Origin: Minisyncoccota bacterium
Lineage (GTDB): Bacteria; Patescibacteriota; Minisyncoccia; Phycocordibacterales; UBA1550
Assembly: GCA_028712595.1 (NCBI GenBank)
Contig: JAQTPS010000002.1
Span: 1 to 63,201 of the forward strand
Direction: 5' to 3'
Length of the DNA stretch: 63,201 nt
Shown: positions 1 to 54,943 of the stretch, one piece after another
Numbering within the stretch: the first letter of the stretch is position 1
How the letters are laid out: every line of letters starts with the position of its first letter
Translations under genes and position numbers: made by a program
Notes under the pieces: generated by a model
Database searches by the model: none
What the model was told of the DNA's origin: nothing
What the model saw: only the letters and a program-made list of their open reading frames with translations

Positions 1-1629
<1,629 letters not shown>

Positions 1630-47659: not shown

Positions 47660-47998
47660 TTATGCAAGAGCAAACTTCTTGCTATTTTGTTCCATTCTCC
47701 AATTGTAGATTGCAGCTCCCTGCTCCCATATCTGGTCTAGTAGAATCTCGGCGCTTTTTTGCATATATTCGGTGATTTCTTCAGATGATTTGCGTTTTGC
47801 TAGGGCAAGACACTTTTTGATTATCTTGTCATCAAGTGGAATATTATCTCCTGTTTTTTCTTCCATAATTTTCGCCCACAAATGAGCGAAAATAACAACG
47901 CTGTGGTCATTTTTTTCTATCTGCGCAGAAATAAACCCTTCCATGCTTTTCAAACCTTGACGATACTTGATCTGTGGAAGTTTTACATGGTTTTCCAT
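47660..47998 (-). CDS. hypothetical protein (112 aa)
   Basis: ATG ORF with its own terminator; no recognisable domain. Confidence 0.45.
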   Translation of the reverse strand: MENHVKLPQIKYRQGLKSMEGFISAQIEKNDHSVVIFAHLWAKIMEEKTGDNIPLDDKIIKKCLALAKRKSSEEITEYMQKSAEILLDQIWEQGAAIYNWRMEQNSKKFALA

Positions 47999-50419: not shown

Positions 50420-51607
50420 CTATTTTTTCTTATTTTTTCTCCAAATAACCAAAAATGAAGCGAGAAGAATAGCTATCATTATCCACGCGCCAGTATTCCA
50501 AGTTATTACACCATTTCCGAAAAAAGCAGAAGCAGCTTGGTTTGAATTGTCTACTGCATTATTGTTTGCCGTAACTCCCGTCGAAGATGCTTGGTTCCCC
50601 TCTCCGTTTTGATTGCCTGTTGGTTCTCCGACACGGAAAGTGTTTGCGCCCGGCACGGCTACTTCTCCTTGAGCCACTGGATTATTTTGTTCCTCGGTTG
50701 GTGTAGCGAGAGCAAGCGTTGGATTGGTTTCAATTGTACCGTCTTTTCTCAACATAAAAGTATGCTCGTAGCTCACCGTTGGCGGAGATGCTCGCGATAT
50801 GACTCTATAAGAATATATTTGCTCCGGCACGAGTCCGAGAAGTGTAACGGTATGGTATGTCACTTTTGTTAAATCTTGAGCCGTCCCCTGTGGATACCCA
50901 AAATTGTCTAGCGTGAGATTTAATACGTACGGGCCACCTGAAGCCAAGCCGTAAACAACCTGACTTGTCGAAAGCAAGTTTGTATTCCAAGTTACAACCG
51001 CGCTATTCGTCTGTGGTGGCAAAGTGCTGTTTATGGACTCGTCACTTATAACAAGATATTTTGGGCCGATAATTATTGGTCCACCGCCAGCGCCTCCACC
51101 CACAGGATTTTGTTTGCCGACGGACACAGTTGTATCATCAACCACTACATCGAGGTCCTCAAAACCTATTTGAAGGTTAAAACCCATCGTGCTGTTTTGA
51201 TATTCATCGCCTGCCGTAGTTTTGAAAGTAGCGGTAAAGTCAAACTGCACCGATGAATTTGCCGGCACTTGCGGTAAGACTATTTCCGGTTTGCTAAACA
51301 AATCAGAGAAAGTATCGTCGTATAAAATCGTACTGTCTTGCTTTATTACAAGTCCTACGACACTTTTCAAATCCCCTGTGTTGCTTACATTAATAGTGCG
51401 CAAAATGGCGCGATGCGGAACTCCAGTCGTGTTGTTTAGTTTTACCCACTTGGTAACAGAATCACCCGGAACAAAATTCACACTGTTAAAAAGCGGACTT
51501 TGCTCAAATTGAACGGTCGACGCCTGTGCATTTGCCGGGCTGAAAGAACTCGCAAAAACCGTTGCTAGCAATGTTAGATATATTAAATTTTTAGTGATTT
51601 TATTCAT
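50420..51607 (-). CDS. exported protein: AxA signal peptide, TasA/camelysin-like N-domain, Gly linker, Fn3-like domain, C-terminal TM anchor + KKK
   Basis: SPANAQAS cleavage-like site, FVPGDSVTKWVKLNNTTG, VVTWNTNLLSTSQVVYG, and C-terminal WIMIAILLASFLVIWRKNKKK. Confidence 0.55.
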   Translation of the reverse strand: MNKITKNLIYLTLLATVFASSFSPANAQASTVQFEQSPLFNSVNFVPGDSVTKWVKLNNTTGVPHRAILRTINVSNTGDLKSVVGLVIKQDSTILYDDTFSDLFSKPEIVLPQVPANSSVQFDFTATFKTTAGDEYQNSTMGFNLQIGFEDLDVVVDDTTVSVGKQNPVGGGAGGGPIIIGPKYLVISDESINSTLPPQTNSAVVTWNTNLLSTSQVVYGLASGGPYVLNLTLDNFGYPQGTAQDLTKVTYHTVTLLGLVPEQIYSYRVISRASPPTVSYEHTFMLRKDGTIETNPTLALATPTEEQNNPVAQGEVAVPGANTFRVGEPTGNQNGEGNQASSTGVTANNNAVDNSNQAASAFFGNGVITWNTGAWIMIAILLASFLVIWRKNKKK

Positions 51608-51613
51608 GGTGAT

Positions 51614-53035
51614 TTATGGGGTTACGGGTGCTTCCGCTACGGCAGGCGTTTCTACCACAACCGCTGGCTCTGGTTCCGGAACGACTACCGGCTCAACCAC
51701 GGAAACAGGCTCTACGACAGGAGAATCGGGCTCTGCGATAGTCTCCTCTGTGGCTGTTGGTTCAACAATTGGAGCTACTGGTTCTGTTTCTGGAATCGCC
51801 TCGTCTTCTTGCGACGAAGAAGGGTCAACTGTCGGTGGTGTAGCCTCCGGAGGAGCCGAGATGCTTTCATCTGCATCAATCTGTTCAGGTATTGCGGGAG
51901 GAAGTGTGTCGTCGGGCACAACCTCATCAGTTGGTGGGTTTTGAACATCTGGAGGCGCGATCACTTCCGCCCCACCGCCACCCGTCGTCGCATCAGGCAA
52001 AGCATTCACCACTACTTCTTCTACTTTGTTTGACGTTCCAGGTGTTGGTATTGGATCAACCCAAGCTCCCACGCCATCAGGAATTCTAGCGTAAGAAAAT
52101 CCTTCTGGTTTTTCTGTGGTCCAAGAGTAGGAATCAACCAAAACTCCACCAAGACTAATTCTATTCGTAAACAATCTAATGCTATCCGCATCATTATTTA
52201 GAATAAAGTCACCATCGCCATTGCGGTAAACCACAAGGAATCCATGAGAAGCTATTGTGGTGCCACTGCCAGTGTGCGCATTATCCACCGGCACTTCTCC
52301 AACATCAGTAGAATCATAAATATACCAACCGTTCAGATCGAAGCTGACGTTGCTGTTGTTGTAAAGTTCCACCCATTCACCTCCCGGCATTGGCGCATCG
52401 TCTAGTCCAGTCGGATTTGGTAATACTTCGTTTAGTACCACCGCTTTGCCGATTCGAATAGAGCCCAGTTTTTCCTTTACGCTCGAAAAACCGGTGGACG
52501 AATTTGGTAAATCACCTTGCCAAGCTGTATAAGTCCATTTGAAGAAACAGGTTTTCCCCCACACGCTGGGCGGAGTGCTTGGGGCAACCGTAAAACCGAA
52601 ATTCCAAGCAGTGTTTGTTGTTGAGGTCGCGGTGGAAGTAAAATCTTTTATGAGTCCCGTGTAAGTGCTCGTCGGGCTGGTTGCAGTCATTGTGACATAG
52701 TCGCAAGCTGACACGTTGGCGCCAGAAAGTGTGGTTTTCGCAATATATTGAGAACCTAAACTGCCGGTATTTGAAATATTTATTGAAGTAGAAGTGCTGT
52801 CCGTCGGATACAACAAATCCGAATTAAAGGCGGTTGTAGAATCCATACCCAGAGTCAGAGTTCCCGCGGTTAAAGTATTTCCAACGGAGGACTCTGTATC
52901 ACTATAATATGCGACAGTTTCATTGACATTCAGAACGCCAGAGAAAATTGAGACGACAACCAAAACTGCTAACAATTTAGAAAATTGTTTTTTACTCCAA
53001 AAAAGATATTTACTGTTGTTCTGTAACATTTTCAT
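51614..53035 (-). CDS. exported protein: SipW-type signal, TasA-like N-domain, lamin-tail (LTD) domain, Pro/Glu/Val-rich tail
   Basis: VAYYSDTESSVGNTLTAGTL, VVLNEVLPNPTGLDDAPMPGGEWVELYN (LTD), and C-terminal PVVEPVSVVEPVVVPEPEPAVV. Confidence 0.6.
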   Translation of the reverse strand: MKMLQNNSKYLFWSKKQFSKLLAVLVVVSIFSGVLNVNETVAYYSDTESSVGNTLTAGTLTLGMDSTTAFNSDLLYPTDSTSTSINISNTGSLGSQYIAKTTLSGANVSACDYVTMTATSPTSTYTGLIKDFTSTATSTTNTAWNFGFTVAPSTPPSVWGKTCFFKWTYTAWQGDLPNSSTGFSSVKEKLGSIRIGKAVVLNEVLPNPTGLDDAPMPGGEWVELYNNSNVSFDLNGWYIYDSTDVGEVPVDNAHTGSGTTIASHGFLVVYRNGDGDFILNNDADSIRLFTNRISLGGVLVDSYSWTTEKPEGFSYARIPDGVGAWVDPIPTPGTSNKVEEVVVNALPDATTGGGGAEVIAPPDVQNPPTDEVVPDDTLPPAIPEQIDADESISAPPEATPPTVDPSSSQEDEAIPETEPVAPIVEPTATEETIAEPDSPVVEPVSVVEPVVVPEPEPAVVVETPAVAEAPVTP

Positions 53036-53573
53036 CTTTTTTTAATGCAACCTTTCCTTCCCTCATTTTTTTAATTTCCTTGATGATTTTTTGTATTTCA
53101 TCATAAACGATGATGACTGCCGGAATAACTATCACGAGCATCAAACCAACCGGCTTCTTCAAAAAATCCACAATGTACCCGAGAAATGGTATTGAAAAAT
53201 AAACCTTGCCCAAAACTTCTTTTTGCGAAACTTCCTTGCTGTCTTCGGAATTGTTGGCGTCGCCTCTTGTTTTGTAAACAATCTCGCCACTTACCGCTTT
53301 CATTTCTGCGATACGATGAGTGGTTGGAATTTCGGTTTTTGTATTTTTTCCGAAAGTTATAACATCCCCAATCTTATAATCAGAAATTGGTTTAATTATC
53401 ACCACACTTCCGGTATGAATGGTTGGCTCCATAGATCCGGACAGCACCGAAAGCACCTTGATATTGCCCGTAATTGGAAAAACAGAAACTATAAGCAAAG
53501 ACGCAAAAAATAATATTGCGATGAGTGCTATGTAGTAAATTGTTTTGAAGGTTTTTTGCATAGGGTACGTCAA
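53010..53573 (-). CDS. sipW: signal peptidase I, SipW/archaeal-ER type (S26B)
   Basis: LSGSMEPTIHTGSVVII...THRI...TRGDANN, plus a C-terminal TM segment. Confidence 0.8.
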   Translation of the reverse strand: MTYPMQKTFKTIYYIALIAILFFASLLIVSVFPITGNIKVLSVLSGSMEPTIHTGSVVIIKPISDYKIGDVITFGKNTKTEIPTTHRIAEMKAVSGEIVYKTRGDANNSEDSKEVSQKEVLGKVYFSIPFLGYIVDFLKKPVGLMLVIVIPAVIIVYDEIQKIIKEIKKMREGKVALKKDENVTEQQ

Positions 53574-53639
53574 AACTTAACTCAAAACCCCCATACTCAA
53601 TCCCTCTTGTTAGAGAGATTGAGAAGCGAGATTCGAAGT

Positions 53640-54317
53640 TTATTCTGTCACTCCACCACTGCCACCAACCTGTTCAAGAGAGGTGAGAACATCAAAACCT
53701 AGGGTATCTGTCTGTATGATATTTTGATTATATGCTGGATAAGTCCATGCTGTTGGAAGTTGCCACATAACAACTAGATCAACAGATTGATCAGCTGTCA
53801 TTGTCATTATATCGTTCCATCCTGTTAGCATATTGCTCACACTAGTGTAGTGAAAGTCACCACCCCAGAATCCTGGATAAATTGCTTTTTGTCCGCCATA
53901 GGCAAGCTGATAATCTCCGGCGTCAAAAACTCCATTTCTGTTCACATCGAGATAAGCGGCAATCACAAATGATAAATCCAAATCACCTCCGTTGTCATAG
54001 TCGCCAGCTTTTATTTCTGGATCAGTCAGAGGACCACCTTCAGATTGAACCATATTTGCGATTTTTACATCCAAATCACCATTCAAACTGCCTGTAGCGT
54101 TTGTCAGAGTAACTTTGCCTGTGCCAGATTGACCAGGATAAAGATTTGCAACGCTAAATGGAATTGGATTGCCAGCACCAAGCACTAAGTCCAATTTCCC
54201 AGCACTAAAGGTATTTCCTGTTGATGTCTCCGTATCCGAGAAGTAAGCGCGAGTTGCGCCGACTGCTCCGATGGCGACGGCTGCGATAACACTCAAGCTT
54301 AAGATAATTCTTTTCAT
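53640..54317 (-). CDS. TasA/CalY (camelysin, peptidase M73-like) family exported protein
   Basis: ATRAYFSDTETSTGNTFSAGKLDL SipW-type N-terminus, and LYPGQSG...VTLTNATGSL. Confidence 0.7.
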   Translation of the reverse strand: MKRIILSLSVIAAVAIGAVGATRAYFSDTETSTGNTFSAGKLDLVLGAGNPIPFSVANLYPGQSGTGKVTLTNATGSLNGDLDVKIANMVQSEGGPLTDPEIKAGDYDNGGDLDLSFVIAAYLDVNRNGVFDAGDYQLAYGGQKAIYPGFWGGDFHYTSVSNMLTGWNDIMTMTADQSVDLVVMWQLPTAWTYPAYNQNIIQTDTLGFDVLTSLEQVGGSGGVTE

Positions 54318-54334
54318 AGTTTATTTCTTAATTA

Positions 54335-54838
54335 TTATTGTTGAACAGCATCAAAGGTAACACCCAAGTTGCCACTCAATCCCTGATAGCCGTTTCCAGC
54401 ACCTGCAGGGAAAGTAATGTCTACTTCACCTGCGTCACTAGCGTCAGTACCACCAACTGCTGACAAAGCTTCGGTAGTAGTGGCTACACCATCAACTCTA
54501 ACCGCACTGACAACTGGCGCATTTGGATTTTGTAACCCGGAAGTAGCTAGATCTTCATCAACTGACATAATAGCCCCACTAAGTGCTGTTGAAACAGTGT
54601 AATTAAGTGGCAAAGATCCTACATTGTTAACATTAAGAGTTAACGTTTTTACATCGCCCGGTTTCATATTTGTAACATCGGTTGTATAAGTAGCTGTACC
54701 AAGTGTTATATCCAAAGTTCCAGCTGTAAACGTATTTCCTGTGGATGTCTCTGTATCCGAGAAGTAAGCGCGAGTTGCGCCGACTGCTCCGATGGCGACG
54801 GCTGCGATAACACTCAAACTCAAAAGAATTCTTTTCAT
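54335..54838 (-). CDS. TasA/CalY-like exported protein, short paralog
   Basis: The first 38 residues match the neighbouring paralog except at positions 4-5 (II vs IL). MKPGDVKTLTLNVNNVGSLPL. Confidence 0.65.
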   Translation of the reverse strand: MKRILLSLSVIAAVAIGAVGATRAYFSDTETSTGNTFTAGTLDITLGTATYTTDVTNMKPGDVKTLTLNVNNVGSLPLNYTVSTALSGAIMSVDEDLATSGLQNPNAPVVSAVRVDGVATTTEALSAVGGTDASDAGEVDITFPAGAGNGYQGLSGNLGVTFDAVQQ

Positions 54839-54906
54839 ATTTTTACTTTATTTCTAAACTAATTAATTTCTAATAATATTCACCTGATAAAACTTTTCTA
54901 CTTTAC

Positions 54907-54943
54907 AAAAAGCAAGCGATTGGTTCCCAATCGCTTGCTTTTT
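54907..54943. terminator. strong bidirectional terminator hairpin
   Basis: 17-bp stem aaaaagcaagcgattgg / ccaatcgcttgcttttt with a 3-nt loop. Confidence 0.6.

Follow-up and report, generated by a model that had tools for sequence, protein, structure and literature searches.

Do the five genes that lie close together on the minus strand of a contig from an ultra-small, Parcubacteria-type Minisyncoccota bacterium (positions 50420-54838 of JAQTPS010000002.1, assembly GCA_028712595.1) build a surface fibre of the type formed by TasA and, if so, how would such a fibre be started, brought to an end and held on the cell? The question was raised by an earlier reading made from the letters alone (hereafter, the sequence-only reading), which proposed a candidate surface-fibre system consisting of two TasA/CalY-like proteins (here P1 and P2), a SipW-type signal peptidase, a protein with a lamin-tail domain, LTD (P4), and a membrane-anchored protein (P5). 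The window, that is, the whole stretch of 63,201 nucleotides (nt) that was analysed, is one entire contig (C36) of a 660-kb genome which is 93% complete. We favour, with a probability of roughly 0.6, an operon that builds a cell-attached TasA-type fibre by donor-strand exchange, in which the LTD protein would be the end piece, P1 and P2 the major subunits, and P5 a membrane anchor that accepts a strand but does not donate one.

All five open reading frames (ORFs) are present on the minus strand at the coordinates collected in Table 1, and every motif quoted by the sequence-only reading (SGSMEP, THRI, AYYSDTESSVGNTLTAGTL and the KKK end) is found in them. They form a tight array, with spacings, in the order P1-P2-SipW-P4-P5, of 17 nt, 66 nt, a 26-nt overlap and 6 nt, for which a single operon is the best explanation.

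P1 and P2 match the Pfam family PF12389 (Peptidase_M73) with 52 and 32.8 bits, respectively (cut-off 22.5), and the NCBIfam model TIGR04088 ('cognate_SipW') with 32.9 and 33.5 bits (cut-off 19). Since the PF12389 matches in P1, P2 and P4 cover only positions ~10-80 of the 196 of the profile, family alignments were built from database homologues for P1, P2, P4 and P5. The P1 family profile (positions 32-160) aligns end to end with residues 5-203 of the solved TasA structure 5OF1, at an E-value of 3.7e-12, and likewise with 8AUR, the alignment beginning a little way into the donor strand and reaching the C-terminal strand N.YQG...F.A.Q; the same profile detects the archaeal AbpX chains (E 3e-4). 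Because of this end-to-end alignment, P1 is a shortened 'mini-TasA' devoid of the helical insertions of TasA, with ~143 residues in its mature form. Its AlphaFold2 model is a beta-sandwich with a mean predicted local distance difference test (pLDDT) of 75.8, in which the only low-confidence stretch besides the first three residues comprises residues 20-33 (pLDDT <50), where the signal peptide ends and the donor strand is predicted. When this model is compared with the PDB by Foldseek, the three best matches are TasA (probability 1.0, E 7e-5), with a TM-score of only 0.39 that derives in part from the signal peptide and the large insertions of TasA.

The P2 family, in turn, aligns with the P1 family over its full length (hhalign 100%, E 2e-43) and with TasA in its N-terminal part (E 4e-7), so that the assignment of both proteins as TasA/CalY-like holds. 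The signal peptide and donor-strand region of P2 are nearly identical to those of P1, and its body carries the acidic loops DPEIKAGDYDNGGDLD and DVNRNGVFDAGD. The 5' ends of the two genes differ at 6 positions in the first 107 nt (54732-54838 versus 54211-54317), and the similarity falls fast beyond about nt 120, a pattern that fits gene conversion, or a signal peptide and donor strand under strong selection.

Two database names would suggest a different nature for these proteins, namely 'Camelysin metallo-endopeptidase' for the Pfam family and 'predicted ribosomally synthesized peptide with SipW-like signal peptide' for homologues at JGI. Taken at face value, they would make P1 and P2 either camelysin-like metalloproteases of family M73 or ribosomal-peptide precursors. 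We regard this as highly improbable, since no zinc-binding motif of the HExxH type is visible in the sequences of P1 or P2, the match to the structural TasA fold spans the whole length, and the genes encode folded domains, 140-450 residues in size, rather than short peptides.

The peptidase of the cluster matches Pfam Peptidase_S26 and the archaeal/ER-type signal peptidase I model TIGR02228 of NCBIfam (119.5 bits versus a cut-off of 51.85), in agreement with the SipW/archaeal-type enzyme first proposed. With the Bacillus SipW equivalog NF046067 it reaches 121.6 bits, under the cut-off of 190, and it is an enzyme of the same type as Bacillus SipW without being its orthologue. It has membrane segments at the N- and C-terminal ends, and its catalytic motifs SGSMEP (Ser47), THRI (His86) and GDAN (Asp105), which are of the Ser-His-Asp and not of the Ser-Lys type, are kept in all seven aligned cassette peptidases. 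This peptidase is present as a single copy in the genome, within the operon, and the LepB-type peptidase of the same genome is encoded elsewhere (contig C16).

P4 combines a TasA-like module with further domains. Its Pfam matches are the lamin-tail domain PF00932 (residues 198-306, 53.8 bits, cut-off 34.3) and PF12389 (30.7 bits, cut-off 22.5); TIGR04088 stays at 14.4 bits, under its cut-off of 19, though the motif AYYSDTESSVGNTLTAGTL is visible. The family alignment of its N-terminal 195 residues matches the P1 family over the full length of P1, signal peptide and donor strand included (hhalign 99.5%, E 2.7e-23), and a sequence-profile search of the PDB with the P4 family gave nothing meaningful. 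The SipW-type N-terminus, the LTD and the Pro/Glu/Val-rich tail first described for P4 are therefore all borne out, the last one by its composition. Cys111 and Cys163, both in the TasA-like module of P4 (in ..ACDY.. and ..GKTC.FKW..), are kept without exception in 42 homologues and hint at a disulfide peculiar to the putative end-piece subunit.

P1, P2 and P4 are all exported, probably share a jelly-roll of the TasA type, and have a SipW-type cleavage context: in the three families, the predicted cleavage follows TxA and precedes [YF][FY], with an aromatic residue at P2'. The segment that follows, corresponding to the donor strand, is the best-conserved part of the three proteins. In TasA, the donor strand comprises residues 28-38, and displaces in the fibre the self-complementing strand 48-61 of the accepting molecule (PMC9674648). 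The distance from the mature N-terminus to the PGD motif has a median of 34-38 residues in P1, P2 and P4, similar to that of TasA, and both the donor strand and the self-complementing strand are kept in them.

P5 departs from this pattern. Its family N-domain matches the P1 and P2 families with hhalign probabilities of 96.7% and 96.0%, respectively, in an alignment that starts only at the PGD strand and runs to the N.YQ C-terminal strand. Because the mature N-terminus lies only 19 residues before PGD (median of the P5 family), the 15-19 residues of the donor strand and its connector are missing, and the TasA-like body of P5 begins at the equivalent of the self-complementing strand of TasA. Moreover, none of 52 P5 homologues shows the aromatic P2' residue, as judged by a simple heuristic. 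At E <= 0.001, the N-domain family includes 954 representative clusters (50%-identity representatives), of which 405 reach E <= 1e-10. Among the 150 clusters listed out of the 954, nearly all have the domain starting ~30-40 residues into the protein, directly behind a signal peptide; among ten divergent matches, two names were obtained, both from Patescibacteria. The only Pfam match of P5 is the Fn3-like PF16656 (residues 195-284, 33.1 bits, cut-off 30), with none to TIGR04088. The AlphaFold2 model of P5 (mean pLDDT 77.5) has values mostly above 90 in the N-domain (31-163) and the Fn3-like domain (187-294) and below 50 in the linkers, followed by ~70 disordered residues and a C-terminal helix at 371-394. 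The AxA signal, the Fn3-like domain and the transmembrane end with KKK given for P5 in the sequence-only reading are thus recovered; its TasA-like N-domain has the profile-profile matches on its side and lacks a Pfam match. Considering the four non-peptidase proteins together, TasA homology held in profile comparisons for each of them.

Anchoring of P5 by LPXTG and sortase was discarded, as TIGR01167 gives 13.9 bits (cut-off 15.9) and no LPXTG is present in the C-terminal ...AASAFFGNGVITWNTGAWIMIAILLASFLVIWRKNKKK. Within P5, conservation is highest in the Fn3-like domain (TSQVVYG...FGYP...H...YxYRVVSRASPPT.S.E, with many invariant residues), and modules of this type are also found, often in multiple copies, in giant proteins of 1000-3500 amino acids (aa) in many Patescibacteria genomes. 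This Fn3-like module may be a common wall- or surface-binding module, and not a spacer.

How would these proteins work together? Upon export, SipW would cleave P1, P2 and P4 and expose donor strands of the YFSDTETSTGN type. The aromatic P2' residue would render these proteins poor substrates of LepB, as reported for TasA, where it blocks LepB cleavage (PMC10269814). P4 would then donate its strand to the first subunit, starting the fibre as does TapA, the predicted donor of the first strand to TasA (PMC9674648), and would end up at the distal end, with its lamin-tail domain and its acidic tail on display. P1 and P2 would polymerise head to tail, and the last free donor strand would be captured by the strand-less domain of P5. 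Because P5 could accept a strand and could not donate one, growth would stop at this point, leaving the fibre tied to the membrane by a wall-spanning stalk of ~200 residues. The fibre would likely serve for adhesion, be it to a host cell, to a surface or to a matrix. The original division of labour between major subunits, dedicated peptidase, LTD tip and membrane base would fit this anatomy, above all in the missing donor strand of P5.

Strand exchange is also the point at which a second possibility is to be weighed, in which the TasA-like proteins do not polymerise but are displayed or secreted individually as adhesins or lectin-like proteins that share SipW export, P5 being one more surface protein of this sort. 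Many PF12389 proteins are indeed uncharacterised, we infer fibre formation here, and domains such as LTD and Fn3 are characteristic of surface proteins that are monomers. However, the donor strand would hardly be expected to be the most conserved segment of P1, P2 and P4 in such proteins, nor the 5' ends of P1 and P2 to remain near-identical when the remainder has diverged, and a paralogue that keeps the body and lacks only the strand segment is hard to explain absent strand exchange. We consider this possibility improbable, and return to the anchored fibre.

If the five genes work as a unit, they should be found together in other genomes, and this is largely the case. The six P5 homologues looked up (33-50% identity) all lie in the same cassette, with differing flanks, and the order subunit(s) - SipW - LTD protein - strand-less anchor is conserved across Patescibacteria. 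Of 301 Patescibacteria genomes sampled evenly from GTDB, 55 (18%) have a SipW-type peptidase, and the P5-type N-domain is present in 22, plus the present genome; all 22 are SipW-positive. The regions fetched around N-domain matches in this sample show, in 20 of 20 cases, the arrangement subunit(s) - SipW - (LTD protein) - strand-less protein. A scan with one genome per species gave 63 loci, 38 of them informative, and 36 of these have SipW - TasA/LTD - P5. The loci with a full P5-type protein and a lineage name belong to Parcubacteria/Paceibacteria, or carry the generic label 'uncultured Candidatus Saccharibacteria'. None of the refuting outcomes named in the sequence-only reading, namely profile searches at odds with TasA homology, predicted structures that conflict with a TasA-like jelly-roll, or members scattered in related genomes, was observed.

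Some of these loci join the parts of the cassette in one ORF. SipW, the cleavage motif and the LTD are fused at seven loci (L020, L021, L026, L027, L028, L030 and L032), SipW and the P5 N-domain at one (L031), and the P5 N-domain and the LTD at two (L019 and L022). A peptidase fused to its own apparent substrate suggests self-processing. The last two loci (L019, G064:C2; L022, G039:C11) are, in addition, instances of two minimal cassettes that stand back to back in divergent orientation, one with subunit - SipW - short anchor domain and the other with subunit - SipW - anchor domain fused to the LTD. In four of the six loci that were looked up (L006, L008, L010 and L011), a gene with a CAP/SCP domain (PF00188) follows one or two genes downstream of the P5 homologue; such a gene is absent from the present window, where the malic enzyme comes next after the cassette. 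At a further locus (L082, 4970-8000), on a contig labelled uncultured Acidobacteriota, the order is SipW, subunit, TasA/LTD, anchor and Fn3, with frames split into short ORFs. As these frames remain broken under code 11 and code 25 alike, genetic code 25 was dropped as an explanation, and long-read frameshifts or decay are more likely, a mis-binned contig being also a candidate.

Several points weigh against the anchored fibre. Among 28 other species of the same genus that were searched, none has a P5 homologue, and a SipW-type peptidase is present in only two, being absent from the other 26 at E <= 1e-10. These two congeners (L112, G305:C5; L113, G303:C25) carry subunit - subunit - SipW - TasA/LTD and no P5, with subunits of 279 and 466 aa and a TasA/LTD protein of 727-741 aa that has a long basic N-terminal extension. 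In the even sample, the P5-type domain accompanies only ~23 of the 55 SipW-positive genomes. The likeness of P5 to TasA comes from pairwise profile-profile scores: Pfam gives no TasA-specific match, a PDB sequence-profile search with the P5 family yielded nothing meaningful, and Foldseek of the whole P5 model against the PDB found only generic two-domain beta-sandwiches (Vpr fibril, WxLIP, CfaB pilin, PapD and Fn3 pairs). To these are added the low TM-score of the P1 model, the fact that the roles of P1 and P2, as core or adapter, cannot be told apart, and the circumstance that polymerisation, polarity and anchoring, like SipW cleavage of P1, P2 and P4 and the adhesive function, are all things that we infer.

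The distribution also bears on a third explanation, in which the fibre or matrix is released, as is that of Bacillus TasA, and P5 serves as a membrane-bound assembly platform or chaperone that transiently holds or caps donor strands for length control. The anchor-less cassettes of the two congeners and the over half of SipW-positive sampled genomes without a P5-type domain would be in line with it, as would the fusion at L031, which puts the P5 N-domain at the cleavage site, and the role of TapA in Bacillus as a strand-complementing chaperone (PMC10151520). On the other hand, the stalk of P5, with its Gly linker, Fn3 domain and disordered region, suits a wall-spanning tether more than a chaperone at the membrane face, and the model for the archaeal Tat-fimbriae (tafi) gives the equivalent protein the role of an anchor (PMC11821415). 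A platform thus seems unlikely to us, and the membrane tether is the role that we prefer for P5.

Because two congeners have no P5 and under half of the SipW-positive genomes carry the anchor domain, the anchor is a frequent option and not an obligatory part of the cassette; the gene order originally proposed is conserved, and its membrane base is not universal. The cassette itself is accessory, and the pattern among congeners points to independent gains or frequent loss. An empty-site comparison through the adjacent malic-enzyme gene gave no insertion boundary, the surrounding gene order not being conserved in the four congeners compared.

Among known systems, the closest by descent is the tapA-sipW-tasA operon of Bacillus subtilis (PDB 8AUR and 5OF1; PMC9674648 and PMC10151520). 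Both have a dedicated ER-type SipW peptidase inside the cassette, subunits whose homology begins at the donor strand and extends to the C-terminal N.YQG strand and whose cleavage context has an aromatic P2', and an accessory protein, P4 or TapA, that has a TasA-like donor strand and extra domains. Contrary to Bacillus TasA, the subunits are here far smaller and lack the helical insertions, and their scores with the TasA equivalog NF046066 are far under its cut-off. P4 differs from TapA in its complete TasA-like body and its lamin-tail domain, and no TapA-family model appears among the Pfam/NCBIfam matches of any of the five proteins, the presence of such a model in these libraries being unchecked. 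The gene order is also different, the peptidase falls under the Bacillus equivalog cut-off, and P5, with its strand-less TasA-like domain on a transmembrane stalk, has no counterpart in Bacillus.

By architecture, the closest system would be tafi of haloarchaea (TafA-G; PMC11821415). There, the dedicated S26 peptidase TafD is needed for the processing of TafA, and an AlphaFold-based model places TafC, with an extra adhesin-type domain, at the tip, TafA in the core and TafE as adapter (PMC11821415). The membrane anchor TafF has a Sec instead of a Tat signal and, at its N-terminus, a pilin-like domain that takes up the last donor strand in the model (PMC11821415); in the same manner, the AxA signal of P5 differs from the SipW-type signals of the cassette subunits. 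Unlike the cassette, tafi is archaeal, its subunits are exported by Tat, and TafD has four transmembrane helices and a second domain. This likeness is architectural, taken from the published description (PMC11821415) and not from sequence, and the anchor and tip roles in tafi are themselves AlphaFold-based models. The archaeal bundling pili of AbpA and AbpX (PMC9245690; bioRxiv 10.64898/2026.01.04.697558; PDB 9sj2 and 9rhp) share jelly-roll subunits of the TasA superfamily that polymerise by strand donation; unlike the cassette, no dedicated peptidase gene is found near abpA (PMC9245690), and neither an LTD end piece nor a strand-less membrane anchor is described for AbpA/AbpX. Finally, the chaperone-usher pili of Gram-negative bacteria (Fim/Pap) resemble the proposed fibre in their ordered donor-strand exchange, adhesin end piece, repeating subunits and terminating subunit, although they are unrelated in sequence and the cassette has neither chaperone nor usher. 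The polarity would also be the opposite, as the distal piece would donate and the basal piece only accept in the cassette.

From these comparisons we tentatively put forward a wider proposal, somewhat less probable than not: the cassette may encode a cell-anchored fimbria of the TasA superfamily, with an LTD starter at its tip and a strand-less membrane terminator at its base, horizontally exchanged and used for contact with a host or a surface, as a bacterial counterpart of tafi with a polarity opposite to that of chaperone-usher pili.

Table 1. Coordinates of the cluster, of the parts of its proteins and of the signals upstream of it, counted from the first letter of the window
Feature	Residues	Positions	Strand	Remarks
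P1		54335-54838	-	167 aa
P1 signal peptide, SipW-type	1-24			predicted cleavage between TRA and YF
P1 predicted donor strand	25-35			YFSDTETSTGN
P1 body	after 35			predicted compact jelly-roll, end AGNGYQG...FDAVQQ
P2		53640-54317	-	225 aa
SipW-type signal peptidase		53010-53573	-	187 aa, start codon TTG
P4		51614-53035	-	473 aa
P4 signal anchor	1-42	52910-53035	-	predicted cleavage between TVA and YY
P4 TasA-like module, complete, with donor strand	43-195	52451-52909	-	
P4 lamin-tail domain	198-336	52028-52444	-	
P4 Pro/Val/Glu tail		51617-52027	-	137 aa, net charge -30; from composition
P5		50420-51607	-	395 aa
P5 AxA signal peptide, ordinary	1-29			
P5 TasA-like body without donor strand	30-165	51113-51520	-	
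P5 Gly-rich linker	166-186			
P5 Fn3-like domain	187-296	50720-51049	-	
P5 stalk, disordered, N/A/G/T-rich	297-369			
P5 transmembrane helix, then KNKKK	370-395	50423-50500	-	
Promoter-like TAGAAA-16-TATTAT		54873-54900	-	consensus scan, 9/12 matches; pattern match only
GC-rich hairpin with flanking A/T runs, bidirectional-terminator-like		54907-54943	.	read directly (aaaaagcaagcgattgggaaccaatcgcttgctttttg)

Upstream of P1, the terminator-like hairpin would close the unit that precedes the cluster, and the promoter-like site lies 35 nt before the start codon. The neighbouring genes are housekeeping ones (M1 aminopeptidase, YceG, malic enzyme, Ddl, MiaA and tRNA genes). A reading of the cluster as a defence system was dropped, as none of the five proteins was matched by the PADLOC models. 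Elsewhere on the minus strand, an ORF of 112 aa (47660-47998) weakly matches the Tad4 family of Thoeris inhibitors (PF25186), with 21.9 bits against a cut-off of 25.

The sequence-only reading knew of no characterisation of such an arrangement in bacteria like those of the candidate phyla radiation (CPR). This applies in part: PF12389 homologues in Patescibacteria were already noted by Wang et al. in an AnnoTree survey (PMC9245690), and the homologues carry the NCBI labels 'TasA family protein', 'lamin tail domain-containing protein' and 'fibronectin type III domain-containing protein', whereas the literature searched yielded no description, in CPR bacteria, of the cassette or of either its anchor or its LTD protein.

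Very little is known about how CPR/Patescibacteria cells make contact with hosts or surfaces beyond type IV pili, and this small, modular and widespread cassette offers a concrete model for a second, non-type-IV type of appendage in these bacteria. The strand-less anchor and the fusions of peptidase and apparent substrate would provide a genetic handle on the start, stop and tethering of TasA-type fibres, including the TasA/TapA fibres of Bacillus, and structural studies of donor-strand exchange would find an attractive minimal model in the mini-TasA subunit. If the proposal is true, the anchored, SipW-dependent donor-strand fimbria would represent an ancient type of appendage common to monoderm bacteria and archaea.

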